DNA from: an uncultured Chlamydiae bacterium
GTDB lineage: Bacteria > Chlamydiota > Chlamydiia > Chlamydiales > SM23-39
DNA: 64,000 nt
NCBI GenBank assembly: GCA_963730605.1
Contig: CAVSSM010000007.1
Span: forward strand, 1-64,000
Direction: 5' to 3'
This document shows, piece after piece, positions 4,636 through 50,664 of this stretch. Every line of letters starts with the position of its first letter. Position 1 is the stretch's first letter. The position numbers and the translations under genes were made by a program. The notes under the pieces are model-generated. The model was given only the letters and a program-made list of their open reading frames with translations. It was not told the origin of the DNA and did not search any database.

Positions 4636-4953
4636 TATACCGCTCGTGATTGAAAAAATCGGTTTTGGTGCGACGCCCCACCCCAAAAACGATGCGTTTC
4701 TGGGGACCCCGGTGGCGGCGTCGGCTTTGACTCGGATTTTTCATCTTCGCTTCCGAGGCAATTCGCTACGCTCATCTGCTCCGCACTGCGAAGGCCCACC
4801 GGACCTTCTCGTGTTTCCGCAGCCTTGCCTTTGGCAAAGTCCCTCGCTCCAGCTGAAAAATCTGAGGAGCTGCTTCGCTCAAAAACAGTCCCCCGGACTG
4901 TTTTTGAGTGTCCACAGTGCCCAATTCCCGTTTTTTCAATCTCTCCCGGTATA
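4636..4953. mobile_element. MITE-A copy 1 (IS630-type, TA duplication)
   Basis: Ends TATACCGCTCGTGATTGAAAAA and TTTTTCAATCTCTCCCGGTATA; near-identical to 30663-30979. Confidence 0.9.
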
Positions 4954-29289: not shown

Positions 29290-31788
29290 TCAGAGCCTAA
29301 ACTCCAGTTGCCGGATTTTGGGTTGGAGCGGCGCTCCTGCCACCTCTCTCAAAGCCGCTTCGAGTCCCGTATGCCTCTTTTGGACTTGATCGTTGTGGAT
29401 GGCTATCCCGATCGCCTTTTTCGTCCCGACGAGATAGACCTGTTTTTTTCCCCTTGTGACCGCTGTGTAGAGCAAGTTGCGCTGAAGCAGCTTGAAATGG
29501 GAGGGATGGATGGGCATTACGATGCAAGGGGCTTCGCTCCCTTGGTATTTATGGACGGAAGTAGCGTAAGCCAAGATCAAGTCGTCCAATTCGGTAAAGT
29601 CATACTCGACCGCTTTATCATCGAAGACAACGGTCAGCTTCTGCTCTGCCGCATCGATTCCCGCGATCCGCCCGATATCGCCGTTATAGACGTTTTTGTC
29701 ATAGTCGTTGCGGATCTGCATGACCTTGTCCGAAACATGGAAGCGGCGCCCTGCCCGGAAAAGGGGCTGGCTACTGGGATTCAATAAGGCTTGGATAGCA
29801 TCGTTTAGCAACTCGACGCCCACTGTCCCTCTTTTCATAGGAGAAAGGACCTGGATCTCGTCTATGGAATCGAATTTCCACTTTTGGGGGATTTCTTTTG
29901 CCACAAGTTCCAAAATGATTTCTTTGATCGCCTCGGGCGTTTCCGCCTCGATGAAGTGGAAGTCGCTCTCTCTCGGCGTTTCTAGCGATGGGAACTCCCC
30001 ATGATTGATCCTATGGGCATTGGTGATGATCTTCGACCCCTTGGCCTGGCGGAAAATTTCGGTCAGCCGGGTGACTCCTACAAGCTCTGAGGCGATCAAA
30101 TCCCGCAGCGCCGTGCCAGGGCCGACGCTGGGAAGCTGGTCGATATCTCCCACGAGCAAAAGCCTTGCGTGAGTCGGCATGGCCCTGAGCAAATGAAAGA
30201 ATAGCGGTGTGTCGATCATGCTGGCCTCATCGACGATCATTAAGTCGCAATCGACGGGGTTGTCTCGCCCCCGTTTGAACCCGCCTGTCTTAAAGTCCAT
30301 TTCCAATAGAGCGTGGATCGTGAACGCTTTCCGGCGGGTGATCTGAGTGAGCCTCTTTGCGGCTCGCCCTGTCGGGGCGGCAAGAAAAATCTTCCCTGTC
30401 CGTTTCTCCATGATCCGCAAGATCGCGTTCGTGATCGTGCTTTTGCCCGTTCCGGGGCCGCCCGTGATGACGTGAACCTTGTCCATCAGGGAACGGATCA
30501 CGGCTTCCTTTTGCCCATCGGCAAAGCGGATCCTGAGCTGCTCTTCCGCCCAGTCGGCCGCCTTCGGCCCATCGATCGGTCGGATCGCCTCGAGGCCGCT
30601 TTTCAACCTTGCCAAGTCTTTCGCAATGCTCTGCTCATAGCTAAAAAAGGGCCCCAGCCATATATACCGCTCGTGATTGAAAAATCGGTTTTGGTGCGAC
30701 GCCCCACCCCAAAAACGATGCGTTTCTGGGGACCCCGGTGGCGGCGTCGGCTTTGACTCAGATTTTTCATCTTCGCTTCCGAGGCAATTCGCTGCGCTCA
30801 TCTGCTCCGCACTGCGAAGGTCCACCGGACCTTCTCGTGTTTCCGCAGCCTTGCCTTTGGCAATGTCCTTCTCTCCAGCTGAAAAATCTGAGGAGCTGCT
30901 TCGCTCAAAAACAGTCCGGGGGACTGTTTTTGAGTGTCCGCAGTGCCCAATTCCCGTTTTTTCAATCACTCCCGGTATAAAGTCCTCTTTGCACACTAAA
31001 ATTCTCTTTTCGGCCAGGGCGGCTATTTCAGCTTCCAAAAGCTCAGCCTTCACTTCAAGAGCAGAGATCGCCAAAGGGAGGAAATCCTTTTGCGGGAAGC
31101 ACGTATGCCCCTCTCCCGCAAGTTCCCAAAGGACGAACTGGATGCCAGCCGCCAGCCGCTCCGGCGAGTGGAGCGCGAACCCCAATTTTTGCGCGACTAG
31201 GTCGGCGAGCTTAAAGCCGATCCCGGCGATGTCTTTGGCTAGTCTATAGGGGTTTTCCTTGACCTTTTCGATGCTCTGGTCCCCGTAGGTCTTATAAATC
31301 CGCTGCGCGTACGCGGGGCTGACGCCGTGAGTTCTCAAAAAGATCATAATATCGCGAATGGAGCGCTGCTGTCGCCAGCCCTCCAACAGATGCTCGATCT
31401 TCTTTTCCCCAAGGCCTGCGATCTCGTAGAGCCTCTCTGGCATCTCTTCGATCACTTTCAGGGTATCGGATCCGAACCGGGAGACGATCTTTTTCGCAAA
31501 GACGGGGCCGATCCCTTTGGCGAGGCCCGATTCAAGATATTTTTGGATGCCGGCCAAGTCGCTGGGCGTTTCGACCGTGTAGTCGGCCACCTCGAACTGC
31601 CGCCCGTGCGAGGGGTGCATCTTCCATGACCCGCTGCACGATATGGTTTCACCCGGCTGCAGGGAGGGGAGGGTGCCTACGATGACTGTAAAATCCTTTT
31701 TGCCCGCCTCTTTGAGCCTAGCGACGGTGAACCCGTTTTCCGGCTGGGTATAGACGATCGCCGCGACGCTCCCTCTCAGCTCTTCCAT
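29290..31788 (-). CDS. recD2: RecD2-like ATP-dependent DNA helicase with a 105-aa in-frame MITE insertion
   Basis: HhH repeats, GGPGTGKST, APTGRAA, VDEASM, GDIDQLPSVG, SVHKYQGSE and LLYTAVTRGK motifs; start at MEELRG inferred. Confidence 0.93.
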   Translation of the reverse strand: MEELRGSVAAIVYTQPENGFTVARLKEAGKKDFTVIVGTLPSLQPGETISCSGSWKMHPSHGRQFEVADYTVETPSDLAGIQKYLESGLAKGIGPVFAKKIVSRFGSDTLKVIEEMPERLYEIAGLGEKKIEHLLEGWRQQRSIRDIMIFLRTHGVSPAYAQRIYKTYGDQSIEKVKENPYRLAKDIAGIGFKLADLVAQKLGFALHSPERLAAGIQFVLWELAGEGHTCFPQKDFLPLAISALEVKAELLEAEIAALAEKRILVCKEDFIPGVIEKTGIGHCGHSKTVPRTVFERSSSSDFSAGEKDIAKGKAAETREGPVDLRSAEQMSAANCLGSEDEKSESKPTPPPGSPETHRFWGGASHQNRFFNHERYIWLGPFFSYEQSIAKDLARLKSGLEAIRPIDGPKAADWAEEQLRIRFADGQKEAVIRSLMDKVHVITGGPGTGKSTITNAILRIMEKRTGKIFLAAPTGRAAKRLTQITRRKAFTIHALLEMDFKTGGFKRGRDNPVDCDLMIVDEASMIDTPLFFHLLRAMPTHARLLLVGDIDQLPSVGPGTALRDLIASELVGVTRLTEIFRQAKGSKIITNAHRINHGEFPSLETPRESDFHFIEAETPEAIKEIILELVAKEIPQKWKFDSIDEIQVLSPMKRGTVGVELLNDAIQALLNPSSQPLFRAGRRFHVSDKVMQIRNDYDKNVYNGDIGRIAGIDAAEQKLTVVFDDKAVEYDFTELDDLILAYATSVHKYQGSEAPCIVMPIHPSHFKLLQRNLLYTAVTRGKKQVYLVGTKKAIGIAIHNDQVQKRHTGLEAALREVAGAPLQPKIRQLEFRL
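30663..30979. mobile_element. MITE-A copy 2, in-frame within recD2
   Basis: TATACCGCTCGTGATTGAAAAA...TTTTTCAATCACTCCCGGTATA; 317 bp including both TA, 315 bp net. Confidence 0.93.
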
Positions 31789-31898: not shown

Positions 31899-31970
31899 TC
31901 CGGGTTAGCTCAGTGGTAGAGCAGTGGACTGTTAATCCATTGGTCGCAAGTTCGAATCTTGCACCCGGAG
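31899..31970 (+). tRNA. tRNA-Asn(GTT)
   Basis: TCCGGGT/ACCCGGA acceptor stem, AGCTCAGTGGTAGAGC D-arm, CTGTTAA anticodon loop, GTTCGAATC T-loop; CCA not encoded. Confidence 0.97.
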
Positions 31971-31976
31971 AATTTT
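31927..31976 (+). repeat. attL core (50 bp)
   Basis: GACTGTTAATCC...CCCGGAGAATTTT is identical to 56003-56052. Confidence 0.95.
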
Positions 31977-31985
31977 GTCTTTCAG

Positions 31986-32016
31986 GCACTTAAGACACAA
32001 ATCTTAGGTGCTTTTT
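31986..32016 (+). terminator. Intrinsic terminator after tRNA-Asn, supplied by the element
   Basis: GCACTTAAGA / TCTTAGGTGC stem followed by TTTTT. Confidence 0.7.
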
Positions 32017-32279
32017 CGTTTTTAAGACTTGAATTTTCCCCATTTTTTTCCCACCTGCTCACAACAGTACACAACAACCAAAACATCGGTAAGAGTCGTG
32101 TTGAAAACGAGCATTCAAATCAGCTTTTTCATAAGGAAATGTGAAAAAATTGGGGAAAACACATGTTCTCATTCCAAAATTCATTGGGAAAAACTGGTTG
32201 AAGAACATGAGATATGCAATCTCCTGTTGCTTAGTTTTCGGCTCTTACGGTACACTTTTTCAACTACTTAGGGGAGCAT

Positions 32280-33341
32280 ATGGCATCGATCAAACAACGC
32301 AAAACGAAAGACGGTAAAACTCGCTACTACGTACAGGTGAGACTGAAAGGGCAAGATCATCAGTGCGCCAGCTTTGAAAGAATCACGGATGCAAAAAAAT
32401 GGATTCAAAATATGGAGTCAGACATTCGATCTGGGCGCCATTTCAAAACGGCAGAGTCCAAGAAGCATTCTCTTGGCGAGATGATCGACAGGTACATGGA
32501 AAACGTTCTTCCCCTAAAGGAAAAGTGCCTCAAGCGGCAGGGGGCGCAACTCCTCTGGTGGAAAGAGCAACTGGGGAATAAATTGCTTGCGGATATCACT
32601 CCTGGGTTGATTGGTGAGTTCAGGGACAAGCTTCTGAAAGAAACTACCGTACGAAAGAAGCTCCGAGCCCCTGCCACAGTCGTTAGATATTTAGCGGCTC
32701 TGAGCCACGCTTTTTCTATTTGCGTGGATGAATGGGGCTGGTTGGATGATTCTCCGATGAGAAAAGTGACAAAGCCTAAAGAGCCTCGGGGGCGTGTTCG
32801 TTACCTTTCGACAGAGGAAAGAATGAGTTTGCTCAATGCTTGTAAAGAGAGTTCGAATAAATATCTTTACCCCATTGTGGTCATCGCATTGTCAACAGGG
32901 ATGAGATTGTCCGAGATCATGGGCCTATGCTGGTCCGATATCGACTTCGAAAAGGGAAGAATTGTTCTCGAACAGCAAAAAAACGGTGATCGATCTACGA
33001 TTCCTGTTGCCGGATTGGCATTGCAGCTTCTAAAAGAATATAGCCAACGTCGATCAATCGCCAGTTGGCTACTCTTCCCTAGCAAAGAAAATCCCAATAA
33101 GCCAATCGATATACGCTTCCCCTGGGAAAAGGCTTTGAAACTCTCAGGTGTTAAAAATTTTTCATTTCACTGCCTGAGGCACTCGGCGGCTTCTTATCTC
33201 GCGATGAATGGGTGCAGTCTTATTGAAATCCAAAAAATCCTCCGACACAAGGCTATTTCTCAAACAGTCCGATATTCCCACCTGTCAGATGATCACATGG
33301 GAGAAGCTATGGCACGCATGAACGAAAAGATTTTTGGATAA
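32280..33341 (+). CDS. Tyrosine integrase
   Basis: TGMRLSE, HCLRH, LRH and RYSH catalytic residues; adjacent to attL. Confidence 0.95.
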   Translation: MASIKQRKTKDGKTRYYVQVRLKGQDHQCASFERITDAKKWIQNMESDIRSGRHFKTAESKKHSLGEMIDRYMENVLPLKEKCLKRQGAQLLWWKEQLGNKLLADITPGLIGEFRDKLLKETTVRKKLRAPATVVRYLAALSHAFSICVDEWGWLDDSPMRKVTKPKEPRGRVRYLSTEERMSLLNACKESSNKYLYPIVVIALSTGMRLSEIMGLCWSDIDFEKGRIVLEQQKNGDRSTIPVAGLALQLLKEYSQRRSIASWLLFPSKENPNKPIDIRFPWEKALKLSGVKNFSFHCLRHSAASYLAMNGCSLIEIQKILRHKAISQTVRYSHLSDDHMGEAMARMNEKIFG

Positions 33342-34306
33342 CCGATTATGAAATCCGTGATGTCGAAGTTTTTTGTAGAGAAGCAATATGTCCATGATGG
33401 CGGGCTGTTATTGAAATTTTCTGAAGAAGAAATGAGGCAATGGGAAGAGGCGCTTTTACAAGATCGTCTAACTGTTGATGATTATAATATTCTATTACCG
33501 CTTTGGTGTTGGGAATTGGGATTCATTCCATTCATTCTAAATGGCTTAAAAGTATTTAAGATTTCTCTTGGAGACTGCGAGGGGGATGAACCAAATCTTC
33601 CCCCTTCCTCCAATCGCGTTATTCCCGTTTTTCTGAAAGCATGGGAGGCTATCCAACAAGGAAATTTGTTGGTCGAAAAAAGTAATAGATCAGTTCAGAT
33701 ATCCATTTCTGAGGCAATTCATCGACCTCGAAGTGTTGTCTCTAATAAATTAATAAATGAATTTTGTAATAATGCAGGCGATTTTTGCACGGAAATTAAA
33801 TCTTCAAAAGTAATTGAGTGGGCTATTTTAAATAATATTCAGATGGATAAGACGTTGTTGACCTTGCTGTCCCTATACCAGGACCCTCCTATAGAGGAAT
33901 TGTGTGAGGAGACTATAGGCAATCGCACCTATCGGAAAAAAATAATTAAAGAGTCGAAAGTAACAAATCCAGAAAAATATGAAGTAGAATATCTAGCTGC
34001 GGCTCAAATGCTTTGGTCTCAATACAAAAGAAGGAATAAATCACAAATTGCCAGCAACCTGTTAATGCGAGAATTTGGCCCTCCAGGCGGATATAGCAAA
34101 GAGGGTGGCAATATCCTAAAGAAACTGAGTATCATTGATCCTTTTGAGCAAAAAAAAGGGCGAGGACGACGACCAAAACCAGAAGAGAAAGAATTCGCTC
34201 TGCTTCCAATCCCAGGAATTGTCATTCAGGAAGATGGCAATAGGAAAATTGATTTAAAAAGATCAAAAGTTGCATTTTTTGCATTTATTCAGATGCTTAA
34301 AAAAAT

Positions 34307-35427
34307 TATACCGCTCGTGATTCAAAATTTTGATGCGTGAAAATTTCCCTTGACTGCACAATGGCTGCGTGAATTTTTTAACCGACTCAGAACGACAGGA
34401 ACTCAAACTCCGGCACCGGGGGGACCGCGATGGGCGGGTGCGTGATCGAATAAAGGCTGTTCTCCTCTATGATGAGGGGTGGGCTCCCAAAGACATTGCC
34501 AGGGTTCTGTTGATTTCTGACGAAGCAGTTCGTCACCATGTTGACGCATACAAAACGTCGAAAAAATTGCGCCCCGAAAGCGGCGGCTCCGAGGAGAAAC
34601 TATCCCAAACGCAGTCCGAGCAACTTGAGGCTCATCTTCAAGAACACACGTACCTTTACGTCAAGGATATCGTCGCATATGTAGAAGTGACTTTCGGTAT
34701 TGTCTATACCGTCCACGGATTGAGGGATTGGCTGCGAAGACACGGATTTTCCTACAAAAAACCCGCCGTTGTACCCGGGAAAGCCAACAAAGAGCAGCAA
34801 CAAAAGTGGCTCGCCGGATACGAGAAACTCAAGGCAGAACTCCTCGAGGATGAGACTATCTGCTTTATTGACGGCGTTCATCCAACGCACAATGTGCAGC
34901 CTGCTTATGGGTGGATCAAAAAAGGCGTGCGTAAAGAGATCCCAGCAAACACAGGACGTGCCAGGCTCAATCTTTCAGGGAGCATCGATGTCATCACCCA
35001 CAGTGTGGTAATCCAAGAAGACGAGACTTTAAACGCAGAATCGATAATCCGGTTTTTCCAAAAGATCGAAGAATTTTACCCGAGTAAACGAAAGATCCAT
35101 GTATTTTGCGATAATGCACCGTACTATCGGAATAGGGCTGTGAGGCAGTACCTAGAAACGGCAAAAGTTTGTTTGCACTTTTTACCGCCCTATAGCCCCA
35201 ATCTAAACCCGATAGAACGACTGTGGAAATGGATGAAGGAGCGGGTAGTTTACAATACTTATTACGAGTACTTTGAAGACTTTAGAGGAGCGATTCTTGG
35301 TTTTTTCGCTGTATTGGCGACTGTGACCGCGGAGTCAACTTTAGGCCGGGATTTAAGAAGCCGGGTTAGGGATAAATTTAGTCCCTTTCAGGCACCTGCT
35401 GCCAAGTTTTGAATTTCCTTGGGTATA
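34307..35427 (+). mobile_element. IS630-family insertion sequence with TA duplication
   Basis: Ends TATACCGCTCGTGATTCAAAA and TTTTGAATTTCCTTGGGTATA. Confidence 0.93.
34369..35412 (+). CDS. IS630-family transposase (single intact ORF)
   Basis: N-terminal HTH, GFSYKKP, FIDG, CDNAPYY and LPPYSPNLNPIERLW motifs. Confidence 0.95.
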   Translation: MNFLTDSERQELKLRHRGDRDGRVRDRIKAVLLYDEGWAPKDIARVLLISDEAVRHHVDAYKTSKKLRPESGGSEEKLSQTQSEQLEAHLQEHTYLYVKDIVAYVEVTFGIVYTVHGLRDWLRRHGFSYKKPAVVPGKANKEQQQKWLAGYEKLKAELLEDETICFIDGVHPTHNVQPAYGWIKKGVRKEIPANTGRARLNLSGSIDVITHSVVIQEDETLNAESIIRFFQKIEEFYPSKRKIHVFCDNAPYYRNRAVRQYLETAKVCLHFLPPYSPNLNPIERLWKWMKERVVYNTYYEYFEDFRGAILGFFAVLATVTAESTLGRDLRSRVRDKFSPFQAPAAKF

Positions 35428-45262: not shown

Positions 45263-45952
45263 ATGCCTCAGATACAAATCTTGCCATACGTCCCATCTTT
45301 CGGAGAGCAACTCGCTCCAGTTCTAGCCCAAGCCCTCGGCGATGTCGGAAAGGGATTGCTACAACGCTCCGTAAATAAGAGAGATGAGACGATCATCGGC
45401 AAAATGTTTTCTCCAGATCTGACGGATCTCCAAAGAATCGAGCTTTCCTTGAAACTCTCACCAGAGCGCCGGGATTCATTTTACAAGGCTGTTGGCGCAT
45501 CGACCAAGGCAGAACAATTCGGCTACCAAAAATCTAGGGAAAAGCGTCTCGCCCATGCAGATCTTCTTGGCGCTTACGACAAAAAAATTTCTCAGATCAA
45601 CAACGACCTGAAGGAAACTGCGAGTAGGGAAGAGCGCAAGCGGCTTCGGGATCTGAAGGATAATCTCACAAGGGAACAAGCAGCAAACAGAACCCGCCTC
45701 CGGGGCGGAGAGCAGCCCGAATTTAAATATCTCGAAATGCAAGAGGCTCAAGCTCCCGCGCAAGCACCTCAGCCAATCCAACCCCAGACAGCCGCACCCC
45801 AGCCACAAGCCCCCATGACGCAGCCTATGGCACAAAGGATAAAATGGGACCCAAGAAACCCCGATCACATTGCCAGGCGAAATGCGGTACTGAATCAGGT
45901 TGGCAACAATCGCCAAGCTGCCCAACAGATTTTATCTGAGGAATTTGAGTAA
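45263..45952 (+). CDS. Hypothetical Gln/Pro-rich helical protein, possible ejection/internal virion protein
   Basis: TAATG coupling to the 1570-aa gene; function inferred from composition and context only. Confidence 0.6.
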   Translation: MPQIQILPYVPSFGEQLAPVLAQALGDVGKGLLQRSVNKRDETIIGKMFSPDLTDLQRIELSLKLSPERRDSFYKAVGASTKAEQFGYQKSREKRLAHADLLGAYDKKISQINNDLKETASREERKRLRDLKDNLTREQAANRTRLRGGEQPEFKYLEMQEAQAPAQAPQPIQPQTAAPQPQAPMTQPMAQRIKWDPRNPDHIARRNAVLNQVGNNRQAAQQILSEEFE

Positions 45953-48900
45953 TGGCAACGGCTCCAGATTTCTTCTCTGATCTTTCACAAAAACCAGAAG
46001 CGAATAAATTTTTCTCCGACATTCCTCAACAAGCCCCGGTTGTGAAGCCCAAGACGTCGCCAACCATGCAGATGGCTCCTGTGAATTTCTTTGCCGATTT
46101 AGAAGGGCAGCCATCCCTCCAAGATCAGCAAGCAAAGCCTCCCGGTTTTTTAGATAGGCTCGGTCAAGCATTTGCATATCAAATGCAATCTGGAGGACCC
46201 GCCGGCGCACCCTCTCTTTCTCCTGATCAAGCTAAGAAAGTTGCTGCCGAAGCCGGAACTCAAATTGCCATAGGAGAAGCATTCGCCCCATTGAAGATAC
46301 TGGCAACCGCATCGAAATACGCCCCTGGATTCCTTCGCTCCCTCGTCAACATCTCTCAGGCCGGAACCACAGGCGCCGCCATTCCAGCCGTCGAATCGCT
46401 CACGGAGAAAGGGGAATTGCCATCCAAGGGAGAATTGCTCAAACACGGAGCCATTTGGGCGGGGATTGACGCGGCAATCCAACTCACTCATGCCGGCGCT
46501 GAATTCGGTGTGATCGTCAATAAACTCAAAGCTGAAACCGGCCTTCCTACGCGTGAAGTTCTCAACCGCTTATGGCAGGGAGCGAAAAAACATTACGGCT
46601 GGAAGCATCCTCCAACCGATCCTGAAACTGGGGCCGCTATCATCGCCCCAGAGCAGATCGAAGCAATGGCCGATCTTGCTGTGAAAGAGCCGGAGACGAT
46701 CATTGAAGCTACGGTCAAAGAAAAAGGTCCTTCCCCAATACCCGAGCCAAAGGCTGCCCAAGAGCCGAAAGTGCGTGATTTCGAAAATATTGACGATGTT
46801 CGGGCGATGCTTTCAGATACCGACAAGAAAATCAAAGCACTTGAGGCACTAGGGCCCAGAGCTAATGCAAACGATGAAAGATTGCTCAATACACTGAGGA
46901 AAACCCGCCCTGGTTTGGTTGAAGTGTTGAAAGAACTAGAAACTAGAGGCAAGCCGTCCTATCTGGAGCCAGAGCCAGAAAAGTCCGTCACGACCGAAGC
47001 GCCTAAGCCAGTATCCGGCTATGTTCGGAAGCCAGAACCAAAAACCGTTCCAGAAAAGATTGCTCACTTATCGCAGAAGGTGAAAGAGAGCGAAGCCCAT
47101 GTCGAAAACATGCGCGAAGCCATAGATCAGCAAAAACAACTCATCGAAGACCTAAAGAAGAGAGAAAGCCAACTATCTCCCATTTCTTACCTACACCCTA
47201 CCAAAGAACAAAGAGACACCGAGCTGAGGAAAGCGAAAGAAAGAGGCGAGATCAAGGCATCCATCATGGGAGCAAAGGACAATCTGGAACAAAAAAGAGA
47301 TGGCTTGTCCTCTGAGAAAGACTATCTTGCCCAGCTGAAAGCCGGGCTAAGAGACTTAAAAGAAAAAAAAGAGGCATCCCGCTACGAAGTTCCACTGGGA
47401 AGAGGCGGTGCTTTAGAGAAAAAAGTCCGTATAAGGCCAGCCGAGAAGGAATTGGCAGAGAAGCAACCCAGCATCATGGGCAAGAAACAGGCGATCGCCC
47501 GCAGTGAAATTCTCAACCTGTTCCGCAAAGCATTCACCGATCCTATCCGTCTAGGTAAATTCGGACAGCGGGCATCAGGCATCCACAAACTGTGGTCCAG
47601 AGTCACCCGCCTCCTCAAGGACAACGATATCGAGACGGCGGCGCATGAGATCGGACATAACTTGCATACGACCCTATACGGCGGGGATGCCAAAACTCAT
47701 GTCGAACAGAGAGAAAACATCAATGCCGCCCTCCGTCCCTACCTCGACGAGCTGAAACCGCTCGCCCTCTATGAACCTTTTGGCATGGAAGGGTTCGCCG
47801 AGTTCACCCGTCTATATGTCACTAACCCGGACACGGCTCTAAAACTGGCCCCAAAGTTTTACGCCAAGTTCGACGCCGACCTGGAGGCACAATATCCCGA
47901 GCTACGCAACGCTCTTTTGGAAGCGCGAGACTACTACGAGCAGTACTTGCAAGGCACACCAGAATCGCGTATTCGTGCCCAAACCGACTATGGCGACGAT
48001 TCTTCTAAACTCGACAATCTGGTTGATTGGGTGAAATCCAGCCTTGACATGGACAAGCTGAAGACAAACTTCCTAGACGATGTCTTCCCGGCAAAGCGGT
48101 TGGTCGCAGAGGCGTTCGGAATATCCTTGTCCGAGGTTGAGAACCTCAAAGACCCGCGCAACCTCTATCGCTCTCTCCGCGTCCTGAAAGGGGCGATAGG
48201 AAGGGCTGATGTCTTCCTCACTCACGAGACCTTCGATGCCAAGACTCTGAAGCGAAAAGGAAGGGGCCTGCGCCAGATCCTCCGCAAGCTCAAAACTCCC
48301 GAGGAGTACAAGGAATTTAACGATTATTTGATCGCCCGCAGAGTTATGGAAAAAGGAAAACAGAACATCGAGACGGGGATCAACTACGGCGATGCCATCG
48401 TAACGGAAAGGAACCTGGCTCCAAAATATAAGAAACTAGCTGTCCTCCTGGATCATTACAATGATGCGCTCCTCACCTATGCCCGAGATGGTGGGGTTCT
48501 CTCCAATGAGCAGTATGCAGCCATCAAGAAAGCGAACATGATGTATGTCCCATTCCAGCGCGTCATCGAGAAACCAGCTGGGGTAGCGGCAATAGGCGGA
48601 CGGCTGCAAGCCGGAAAGCCGATCAAGCGCATGAAAGGCAGCACGCGGGATATAATTGCCCCTATAGAATCTGTCATCAAGAATACATACGCGATCATCG
48701 TCAACGCCGAGAAGAATCTTTCCGGCCAAGCGCTTGCAGAATTGGCAAAAATGAGAGGAATTGGACGGCTTGTGGAATATGTGCCCGCTCCAATAGAACT
48801 CAAGGCCAAGATTTCGCGGGAAGAAGCGCTCAAGCAGATGGAAGCTCTGCTAAAACAGAGCGGCTGGATTACCGAAGGCGGCGGTGGCTTAGGCGAGGAA

Positions 48901-50664
48901 AAGCTTGAGGACTTTGGGATTAAGCTCGCTGAAATCATGCCTGATTTCTTCTTGCGCTTCGGTCCAGGCACTTATCCTGCCGGGGAAAACATCATCACCG
49001 TATTCCATGAAGGCAAGCCGAGCTACTTTGAAGTTTCCCCAGAGATTTACCAGATGTGGACGAAGGGGATCGCTCCTTACACCGCCGACATCATCACCAA
49101 AATCCTCCGCATTCCAGCCAGGGCATTGCGCGCCGGTGCCATTCTCAACCCAAAATTCATGATGAAAAACATCGTGCGCGATACATGGGGCGGCTTTCTC
49201 TTCACCAAGTATGGGAAGAACATCAAGGACCCCCCTGCGCTGTTCCTGGACACTCTTTACGCCCCGCTTGCTCAATTGGGCATCGCAGCCAAACAAGCCA
49301 AGCTCTACGTCGAATGGATGAAATCGGGCGGCGGCATGTCTACCATGCAGTCGATGGATCGGGAAGCGATTATCAAGAAGCTCAAAGAAGTGCGAGACGG
49401 GTTGCAACCGCACCAAGTGATCCGGTGGCTCAGAAAGGTCGCCGAAATCTCGGAAGAGGCTAATCGGCTTGCTGAGTTCGGCCGCGCTTTGAATGTAGAG
49501 GGAGAGACGCGCTTGGGTAAAGAAATCGCCGCTTTCGCTTCCCGAGACCTGAGCATTGATTTCGCTAAGATGGGTCTGCAAACCAAGGCGTTAAACCAGA
49601 TCATCCCTTTCTGGAATGCAACTGTACAAGGCGGAGACAAGCTCATCAGAACGCTCGCCAGCGACCAGGATCGAGCCGAATTCATTGCCAGGGCAGTTGG
49701 GTTCATCCTCATCCCATCGCTAATCCTCGCCTGGATGAACCAGGATGATGAACGGGTCAAAGAATTCTACGAAGAAGAGAAAGACTTCAACTTCATCTCC
49801 TTCATCGGCGATACTGCTATCAAGATCCCCGTCCCCTTCGAAACCGGAGTCCTCGTCCACGGCCTGACGCAGCGTATGTATAACCACTTCATCAAGAAAG
49901 ATCCCCATGCCTTCGAAGGGTTCATAGGCAGCATTGCCTCTGCCATGCTCCCGAACTTCGTGCCCGCTTTCGCTAATCCGTTCGTAGAAGCGGCGGCGAA
50001 CCGGAATTTCTTTACCGGCGCGCCTATCATTCCTCGGGCTAAAGAAGGGCTAGTAGCCAAGTACCAATACAAGAATAACAGCTCGGCGACCGCCAGGCTT
50101 CTTGGCCGCGCCATGACCTACATGATGGGCCAGGACACGCGATCGAAAGCCGCCTCTCCTGCCGTCATCGACCACTTCATAAATTCGTGGGGAGCGGGCC
50201 TTGGACGGCTTGTCGTCTCTCTTGCCGATGCTGGATTGGAAGCCGCTGGACTGAGCGATAAGATCCCAGGGCCGGAGAAGACCATTACAGAAAGACTGGG
50301 TCTCGATGCGTTCGTTTCCCGGTACCCAAGAGCGTCTGCTAGGAACATCGAGAAGTTCTACGACATGTATGCCGATGCCACAGCTCGGCGCCGCTCCATT
50401 AAACAGGCTGAGAAGGTCGAGCTTGAGGAGCCGGAAGCGATCGAAGAGGCTTATGAGCGGGTCGAATCGCTTTACGACTACCCGACCTTACAGCGAGCCT
50501 ACAAGGCCATGCAGAAGAACCAGCGGGCGATCAACGAGATTTGGCAGAACCCCGATATCGACGAGAAGACCAAGAGGACCATGATCGACGATCTTTACTT
50601 GCAGCAAATCCAGTTCGCCAAAGAAGCCGTTGAGGATATCGAGAAATATCGCCTTGCTGGCTAA
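45952..50664 (+). CDS. Large polyvalent protein with HExxH metallopeptidase-like motif and LPD38-like C-terminus
   Basis: AAHEIGH..EGFAEF; DFAKMG..NQIIPFWNA..QG..K, IKIPVPFE.G and PFVE...NRNFFTG.PI segments. Confidence 0.75.
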   Translation: MATAPDFFSDLSQKPEANKFFSDIPQQAPVVKPKTSPTMQMAPVNFFADLEGQPSLQDQQAKPPGFLDRLGQAFAYQMQSGGPAGAPSLSPDQAKKVAAEAGTQIAIGEAFAPLKILATASKYAPGFLRSLVNISQAGTTGAAIPAVESLTEKGELPSKGELLKHGAIWAGIDAAIQLTHAGAEFGVIVNKLKAETGLPTREVLNRLWQGAKKHYGWKHPPTDPETGAAIIAPEQIEAMADLAVKEPETIIEATVKEKGPSPIPEPKAAQEPKVRDFENIDDVRAMLSDTDKKIKALEALGPRANANDERLLNTLRKTRPGLVEVLKELETRGKPSYLEPEPEKSVTTEAPKPVSGYVRKPEPKTVPEKIAHLSQKVKESEAHVENMREAIDQQKQLIEDLKKRESQLSPISYLHPTKEQRDTELRKAKERGEIKASIMGAKDNLEQKRDGLSSEKDYLAQLKAGLRDLKEKKEASRYEVPLGRGGALEKKVRIRPAEKELAEKQPSIMGKKQAIARSEILNLFRKAFTDPIRLGKFGQRASGIHKLWSRVTRLLKDNDIETAAHEIGHNLHTTLYGGDAKTHVEQRENINAALRPYLDELKPLALYEPFGMEGFAEFTRLYVTNPDTALKLAPKFYAKFDADLEAQYPELRNALLEARDYYEQYLQGTPESRIRAQTDYGDDSSKLDNLVDWVKSSLDMDKLKTNFLDDVFPAKRLVAEAFGISLSEVENLKDPRNLYRSLRVLKGAIGRADVFLTHETFDAKTLKRKGRGLRQILRKLKTPEEYKEFNDYLIARRVMEKGKQNIETGINYGDAIVTERNLAPKYKKLAVLLDHYNDALLTYARDGGVLSNEQYAAIKKANMMYVPFQRVIEKPAGVAAIGGRLQAGKPIKRMKGSTRDIIAPIESVIKNTYAIIVNAEKNLSGQALAELAKMRGIGRLVEYVPAPIELKAKISREEALKQMEALLKQSGWITEGGGGLGEEKLEDFGIKLAEIMPDFFLRFGPGTYPAGENIITVFHEGKPSYFEVSPEIYQMWTKGIAPYTADIITKILRIPARALRAGAILNPKFMMKNIVRDTWGGFLFTKYGKNIKDPPALFLDTLYAPLAQLGIAAKQAKLYVEWMKSGGGMSTMQSMDREAIIKKLKEVRDGLQPHQVIRWLRKVAEISEEANRLAEFGRALNVEGETRLGKEIAAFASRDLSIDFAKMGLQTKALNQIIPFWNATVQGGDKLIRTLASDQDRAEFIARAVGFILIPSLILAWMNQDDERVKEFYEEEKDFNFISFIGDTAIKIPVPFETGVLVHGLTQRMYNHFIKKDPHAFEGFIGSIASAMLPNFVPAFANPFVEAAANRNFFTGAPIIPRAKEGLVAKYQYKNNSSATARLLGRAMTYMMGQDTRSKAASPAVIDHFINSWGAGLGRLVVSLADAGLEAAGLSDKIPGPEKTITERLGLDAFVSRYPRASARNIEKFYDMYADATARRRSIKQAEKVELEEPEAIEEAYERVESLYDYPTLQRAYKAMQKNQRAINEIWQNPDIDEKTKRTMIDDLYLQQIQFAKEAVEDIEKYRLAG

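Follow-up and report, generated by a model that had tools for sequence, protein, structure and literature searches.

An IS630-type miniature element lies in frame within the recD2 helicase gene of an uncultured Chlamydiae bacterium

The closest described counterparts of the element reported here are the palindromic elements of Rickettsia (RPEs), dispersed repeats that, in the portions of PMC10969869, PMC3184786 and PMC1458961 on which we drew, lie in frame in unrelated protein genes; those portions give 526 RPEs for R. bellii, of which 53 are in genes, and RPE sizes of about 105-146 bp are found in the table of PMC3184786. The part of that table consulted also covers Correia, RUP and ERIC, bacterial TA-targeting MITEs that are described as mostly intergenic. 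Repeats fused to protein sequences are outlined in the same source for Bordetella, where BRE is fused internally into about 9 protein genes, and for pneumococcus, where BOX is a variable-length MITE-like element fused to ORFs (PMC3184786). In Coxiella, the account available to us describes QMITE1 and QMITE2 as overlapping gene ends and supplying stop codons, with mid-gene in-frame copies in hypothetical proteins (PMC5896051).

We analyzed a 64,000-nucleotide stretch of an uncultured Chlamydiae bacterium (GCA_963730605.1, contig CAVSSM010000007.1, positions 1 to 64,000; hereafter the window), in which a 317-bp element of a family that we call family A lies at 30663-30979 (minus strand) inside recD2. 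Like RPEs, it is a palindromic dispersed repeat in a lineage of intracellular lifestyle, and the same peptide is read in frame in unrelated genes. It differs from RPEs in adding 315 bp net rather than about 105-150 bp, which agrees with the original prediction of a parallel to RPEs at larger size, and also in its clear terminal repeats, TA duplication, co-resident IS630 and modular interior, and in number, with about 12 two-ended copies here against the 526 RPEs given for R. bellii in the text consulted. The recD2 element works like RPEs and is set beside them by description, with no Pfam or Rfam match; because its size differs and the likeness described is one of behaviour, we do not class it as an RPE. 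With Correia, RUP and ERIC, which are linked to IS630, it has in common a non-autonomous nature, terminal inverted repeats, TA duplication, stable hairpin RNA and IS-type ends, but those elements are mostly intergenic as far as they are described, whereas more than half of the two-ended copies here are in frame within genes. BRE and BOX, the latter with a 45-bp boxB module, are likewise repeats fused into protein genes, although in another phylum, and are likened to the element by description. The Coxiella QMITEs, as described in the part of the account used, are MITEs as well, come from an intracellular bacterium, overlap the ends of genes and give stop codons; their mid-gene hosts are hypothetical proteins, whereas those found here are conserved genes, for example recD2 and a secretin gene. 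The present case contributes its large insert, a transposase candidate and a direct estimate of how neutrally the peptide drifts.

The recD2 gene (29290-31788, minus strand) starts at ATG 31788 and encodes 832 residues; the list of open reading frames gave 899 residues by way of an upstream GTG, but the starts of orthologues agree with ATG 31788. Its assignment to RecD2 is made at the sequence level, from a TIGR01448 score of 846 bits (cutoff 500), an OB/HhH N-terminus and intact helicase motifs, with Pfam matches to OB_YrrC, HHH_RecD2, AAA_30, SH3_13 and UvrD_C_2. The insert corresponds to residues 271-375 (105 codons), upstream of the Walker A motif at residue 443, and the later helicase motifs are intact. 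The protein reads KEDF-IPGV...NHERY-IWLG, and in silico removal of 315 bp leaves 727 residues reading EDFIW. The analysis thereby reproduced what had been claimed for the structure of the locus: terminal inverted repeats, a TA duplication and a net gain of 315 bp without a stop in the 832-residue frame, placed before Walker A, whose removal restores the shorter protein.

The element has the features of a MITE: it is short, has no transposase, carries terminal inverted repeats, duplicates TA and occurs in multiple dispersed copies (12 two-ended, 163-318 bp). TATA is found at both ends of the 317 bp, which include both TA copies, and the terminal inverted repeats, each with its TA target copy, are at 30663-30688 (left) and 30954-30979 (right, from the inverted-repeat comparison), 26 nt long and 85% complementary. 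Between them lies a mosaic of hairpin modules, and copies differ by blocks of 51, 45 and 66 bp and by a net 42-bp block. The 45-bp hairpin module (30695-30741) is missing from some copies, occurs in tandem in a second family (family B) and stands alone in many places; the hairpin module of about 66 bp (30788-30854) is common to another MITE family, where it has the same peptide frame; and a perfect 14-bp hairpin (30904-30934) belongs to a 51-bp module that is missing from the 266- and 221-bp copies. The whole element folds at -142.8 kcal/mol (z = -8.0), which none of 100 shuffles equalled. One of its six frames is open, and reading enters it where the T of the target falls at the third codon position and the right end leads. 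When the element was resampled 5000 times with a first-order Markov model, 43% of the resamplings had at least one open frame, and we rejected the notion that an open frame is surprising by itself. A family-B element at G000:C1:317547-318081 (G000 being this genome) has about five tandem 45-bp modules. By-eye counting found CA or AA instead of the outer TA at 7 of 44 ends, drawn from the 22 two-ended small elements and the one-ended relatives listed; loss of the outer T might stop re-excision.

Comparison with relatives, all 40 of which had a RecD match when searched, shows that this is an insertion. The segment at the insert site has 9-17 residues in all 19 aligned RecD2 orthologues against 114 here, and the check on orthologues suggested by the original prediction thus found the insert in 0 of 19 and one exact empty site, in the relative G002. 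The G002 site reads TTT ATA TGG with a single TA, the same as the empty site obtained by slicing out the element, and because the two are identical we conclude that one TA was duplicated at recD2. Another relative, G003, is without the element in its genes for the secretin (264 bp added here) and the TLC-type transporter (315 bp added here), as well as in its sulfatase, 1030-residue protein and RlmM-like genes. In contigs from sequencing runs, the left junction is crossed by record 19 of X3 (30607-30776) with 0 differences and, in another study, by record 27 of X5 (30495-30753) with 10 differences in 259 nt; no joint that skips the whole element is among those listed, and none of the pieces listed bridges the right junction by at least 31 letters. 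When metagenome contigs were searched with exact patterns from the left junction and the right end, there were 0 matches in a collection that may leave out this genome's own records. The best-matching sequencing runs are soil metagenomes, none of which contains half of the sampled words, and no RNA run containing the sequence is among the runs listed. At the level of DNA, the recD2 element is real and its support is good.

A likely mobilizer lies 3.3 kb away. An intact, autonomous IS630 of 1121 bp (34307-35427, plus strand) carries an ORF for a 347-residue transposase at 34369-35412 (NF033545, 218 bits, cutoff 100) and is present in 14 copies in the genome that differ by 0-1 base. The left end of the MITE is identical to that of the resident IS630 at 20 of 21 bases, and the right end matches at only 17 of 30 positions; because of this weaker right end, the true mobilizer may be a relative of the resident IS630. 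In the IS630 of G053 (68% identical), an end matches the left end of the MITE at 25 of 30 positions, and a G088 IS630 relative matches at 23 of 30. The TA target and the ends common with IS630 support the original designation as an IS630-type MITE, and the element was likely moved in trans by an IS630 transposase. The claim of a traceable transposon origin stands for the ends but not for the interior, for which the best match to the resident IS630 had E = 0.15; derivation of the interior from IS630 by internal deletion was rejected on this lack of a significant match. The IS630 copy in the window sits in the 3' end of an ORF at 33348-34340, and the stretch 31899-35427 holds a tRNA-Asn gene followed by a phage-type integrase gene (32280-33341) and a low-GC island. 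Inside the island, 45952-50664 encodes a 1570-residue protein with an LPD38 (large polyvalent protein) domain, adjoining genes for a DUF5906 protein and a ResIII-type helicase. Elsewhere, the IS630 copy at G000:C2:321423-322543 (L130) splits a long, repeat-rich protein gene.

A terminal-motif search of the genome returned 22 two-ended small elements together with the 14 copies of the 1121-bp element. The genome-wide count of in-frame intragenic copies that had been proposed as a check gave 7 of 12 two-ended family-A copies; the other five are intergenic or at stop codons, and there were 0 gene-internal breaks. Every in-frame family-A copy uses one frame, the only open one. The hosts are recD2 (mid-gene), a TLC/MFS-type transporter (following codon 3), an RlmK-like methyltransferase (following codon 2, counted from the start that orthologues indicate), a sulfatase, a secretin (directly after the hydrophobic N-terminus), a 1030-residue protein without a Pfam match, and an RlmM-like gene, whose copy has an extra A in this assembly. 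Three of these seven copies are at gene starts, where an internal ATG of the element could bypass them, and the RlmM-like protein P0008 of another assembly, otherwise identical, starts at an ATG inside the element. In that gene the old start now precedes a stop, and P0008 gains its new ATG from the element; at the junction of the SpoU-family and RlmM-like genes, the copy at G000:C7:123653-123964 (L060:654-965) also supplies the stop codon of the upstream gene. Two one-ended remnants are in frame, in dnaX and in a gene for a 436-residue hypothetical protein. Relatives of the element thus lie in no fewer than eight genes besides recD2. The dnaX remnant (G000:C2 ~90200; L062 ~605) lies in a linker; against all three orthologues compared, dnaX has a 2-bp gap that splits it, probably an assembly error.

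The second family-A copy in the window (318 bp, 4636-4953, minus strand) is 96% identical to the recD2 copy and lies at the 3' end of a CT021-family gene, whose frame ends YTGRD-stop inside the element and whose presence points to a chlamydia. Its extra A, reported in the original prediction, was confirmed, but the suggestion that only a variant of 3n length was tolerated, and hence selected, at recD2 failed: 317 bp (net 315) is the commonest full length in the family (4 of 6 full-length copies here, plus the G003 copy), and the internal frame of the 4636-4953 copy is irrelevant because it sits at the stop codon of the CT021-family gene. The 3' end of this gene carries different MITE subfamilies in the window and in G003 (G003:C19 ~7427; L134), which suggests independent insertion at the same spot.

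The idea behind the 3n argument, a filtering of coding insertions by selection, does hold genome-wide on separate evidence. Of the TA sites, 27.9% lie between genes, 13.8% are compatible with the frame and 58.3% would be disruptive, and under random landing at TA the probability of at most 1 disruptive copy of 12 is 5e-4, a crude null in that the gene set is a hexamer-based prediction. The null is crude also in that, of the 14 copies of even the young IS630, only 2 to 6 interrupt an ORF, below the 72% expected. Among the 22 two-ended MITEs with this end, those of 3n net length are in frame in genes in 7 of 12 cases versus 0 of 10 for the others (p = 0.005), a comparison that is partly circular and in which a 312-bp copy is counted as 311 on the evidence of another assembly. 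The peptide frame is broken in 4 of 5 non-coding family-A copies (Fisher p = 0.01-0.07), on which we place little weight because three of the breaks are single-A homopolymer changes and may be assembly errors; the assembly appears to contain small indel errors.

Evidence on recD2 itself comes from record 25 of X5, a 542-nt contig downstream of the insert from a strain about 4% divergent. Its codons differ by 19 silent and 5 replacement changes (P = 4e-8 versus neutrality); all 25 of its differences were covered, and 40 of 79 differences were among those listed. Because of these changes recD2 looks alive and appears still to be under purifying selection, which speaks against the decay that the original prediction had named as a possible objection; the signal assumes a single insert-bearing strain, the X5 contigs being physically unlinked. 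Between G000 and G003, 321 codons of recD2 give a dN/dS of 0.14; the branch to G000 has 8 amino-acid changes and that to G003 has 15, so that replacements are not in excess on the former, in a comparison mostly older than the insertion (dS of 0.36, whereas the recD2 copy is 1.9% from the family majority). The insert peptide drifts neutrally: relative to the family majority, pN/pS is 0.91 for the seven in-frame copies, like the 0.98 of six others including the G003 copy, and its amino-acid sequence is therefore not conserved. With a GRAVY of -0.96 and a mean hydropathy of 0.393, below the disorder boundary of 0.417, the peptide is hydrophilic and predicted to fall on the disordered side of the charge-hydropathy boundary. 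It lies where the N-terminal region ends, ahead of the motor, in a stretch whose length varies, and because of this variation among orthologues and the composition of the peptide we infer that it forms a surface loop. In a HMMER alignment the site falls at TGEG|RIYL of D. radiodurans RecD2 (3E1S). The insert site may be the wing of a winged helix. No terminator-like site was found on the sense strand within the element.

We therefore favour, with good though not full confidence, a non-autonomous MITE with IS630-type ends, in frame in recD2, which an IS630 transposase likely moved there and which is likely translated into a neutral loop of 105 residues, predicted to be disordered, in a helicase that likely still works. 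An IS630 transposase would have inserted the element in trans at a TA spanning a codon boundary of recD2, in the single read-through orientation, with the target T at codon position 3 and the right end first. The landing site would be tolerant, as a length-variable stretch before the motor and a putative surface loop; selection would remove out-of-frame copies, retaining the frame and not the peptide sequence, and the loop would be translated within a RecD2 that stays active.

The most serious alternative, although an unlikely one, is that the insertion disabled or weakened RecD2 and that the gene persists by drift in a weakly selected symbiont. The 105 residues do lie between the N-terminal region and the motor, and the N-terminal domain matters in vivo according to the part of PMC12143592 consulted; a RecD paralogue is also present (G000:C9:90222-91334, 34% identity), and the insertion is recent compared with the divergence from G003. 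Against such a loss, the motifs are intact without stop or frameshift, the length of the site varies among orthologues, and the excess of silent changes comes from a strain in a run that also contains the junction. Slightly less probable still is co-option of the peptide, whether in RecD2 or in other hosts, as a functional module that would serve as a tag, a linker or a surface for interaction. One frame is common to all in-frame copies, the element gives the RlmM-like gene a new start codon in another assembly, and in-frame copies are not rarer than intergenic ones (7:5 versus 0.49:1 expected, not significant), yet the pN/pS of 0.91 does not differ from that of non-coding copies, other in-frame copies are without blocks of 15-32 residues, the host genes are unrelated and none of the 19 orthologues has the insert.

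Normal RecD2 might also be restored after transcription or translation, by skipping of an RNA hairpin, splicing or intein-like excision, and the RNA is indeed predicted to fold with both ends paired. We consider this improbable, since loss at the RNA level needs no open frame, yet every gene-internal copy is in frame; moreover, the absence of an Rfam match in the element and of a Pfam match for the peptide leaves no known splicing domain, and the ends of the peptide are unlike those of inteins as generally known. Only 1 of 110 predicted pairs has a two-sided change, with an unfavourable covariation term (+1.26), and selection on the RNA structure of the element was rejected on this count. Least probable of all, with hardly any weight left to it, is a repeat mis-joined into recD2 during assembly. 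Small indel errors are apparent (the 2-bp dnaX gap, and an extra A in another copy that is not in P0008), and the exact 832-residue protein was not found in the protein collection, but the TA duplication is exact at a site matching orthologue codons, the recD2 copy has substitutions of its own, and, with respect to the artefact that the original prediction had considered, runs of two studies have contigs across the left junction and no whole-element skip is listed.

If the favoured reading of a translated, tolerated MITE insertion holds, this would be a clean and well-controlled case in which selfish DNA lengthens a conserved DNA-repair enzyme by about 100 residues and does no visible harm, while sister genomes offer empty sites and a likely transposase lies close by. 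Neutral drift of the peptide argues that such inserts ride along as passengers and are not new domains. Taken together, the copies amount to a natural screen of where chlamydial proteins tolerate insertions, marking gene starts, the end of a signal peptide, linkers and variable loops, and such inserts matter for annotation, as they inflate protein lengths and can shift start codons. If the IS630 partner moves the element, the origin of RPE-like coding repeats becomes open to experiment. We also put forward, tentatively and as a doubtful reading, a chlamydial MITE lineage adapted to life inside proteins, which combines IS630-type ends with swappable hairpin cassettes of 3n length; as an equally tentative part of it, the cassettes would share a single hydrophilic reading frame, fitted to the TA phase that is commonest in coding sequence. 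The module lengths of 42, 45, 51 and 66 bp are all multiples of three (chance 1 in 81), but spread between genes is also seen in sublineages that are not 3n, namely the copies of 205 and 163 bp and the greater part of family B. Were it true, frame-keeping variants would out-propagate others, and with an identifiable transposase the birth of RPE-type peptides would be testable in the laboratory.

Our literature search found no report of in-frame MITEs in Chlamydiae, in a coverage that largely leaves aside subscription journals and supplements and with a search term, 'MITE', that collides with the animal name. A profile search with the peptide matched 8 of 1.84 billion proteins, a protein search yielded 4 proteins among 197 candidates, all matching host genes of this genome, a scan of genome contigs confirmed 2 of 148 candidate stretches, and the ESM Atlas gave no usable match to the peptide. 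Pieces of the element match 50 of 103 genomes of the family (this one included), and a full-length copy elsewhere was found only in G003. That genome has 18 distinct elements (19 end matches), of which four appear in frame in long ORFs, all four of 3n net length. Comparison of the present genome with itself gave 342 repeated segments, 34 of them inside predicted genes and some being ordinary low-complexity or protein repeats, and further MITE families are in frame in genes for dehydrogenase E1, dehydrogenase E2, a prephenate dehydratase fusion and a BacA protein. A separate TA-flanked family of 113-236 bp (G000:C1:495565-495800 and 6 copies) has the 66-bp hairpin module and reads YRAQEGF...NLTERG, in frame in several genes that include dehydrogenase E1 and the start of a Mur-ligase-family gene. 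In G006, a related element is in frame in truA (L037 ~1397-1602), in a frame different from that of family A. In G112, domains of a GT2 glycosyltransferase and a nucleotidyltransferase flank a related element of 259 bp (L043:1378-1636) within one 683-residue ORF, which may be a gene fusion made by a MITE.
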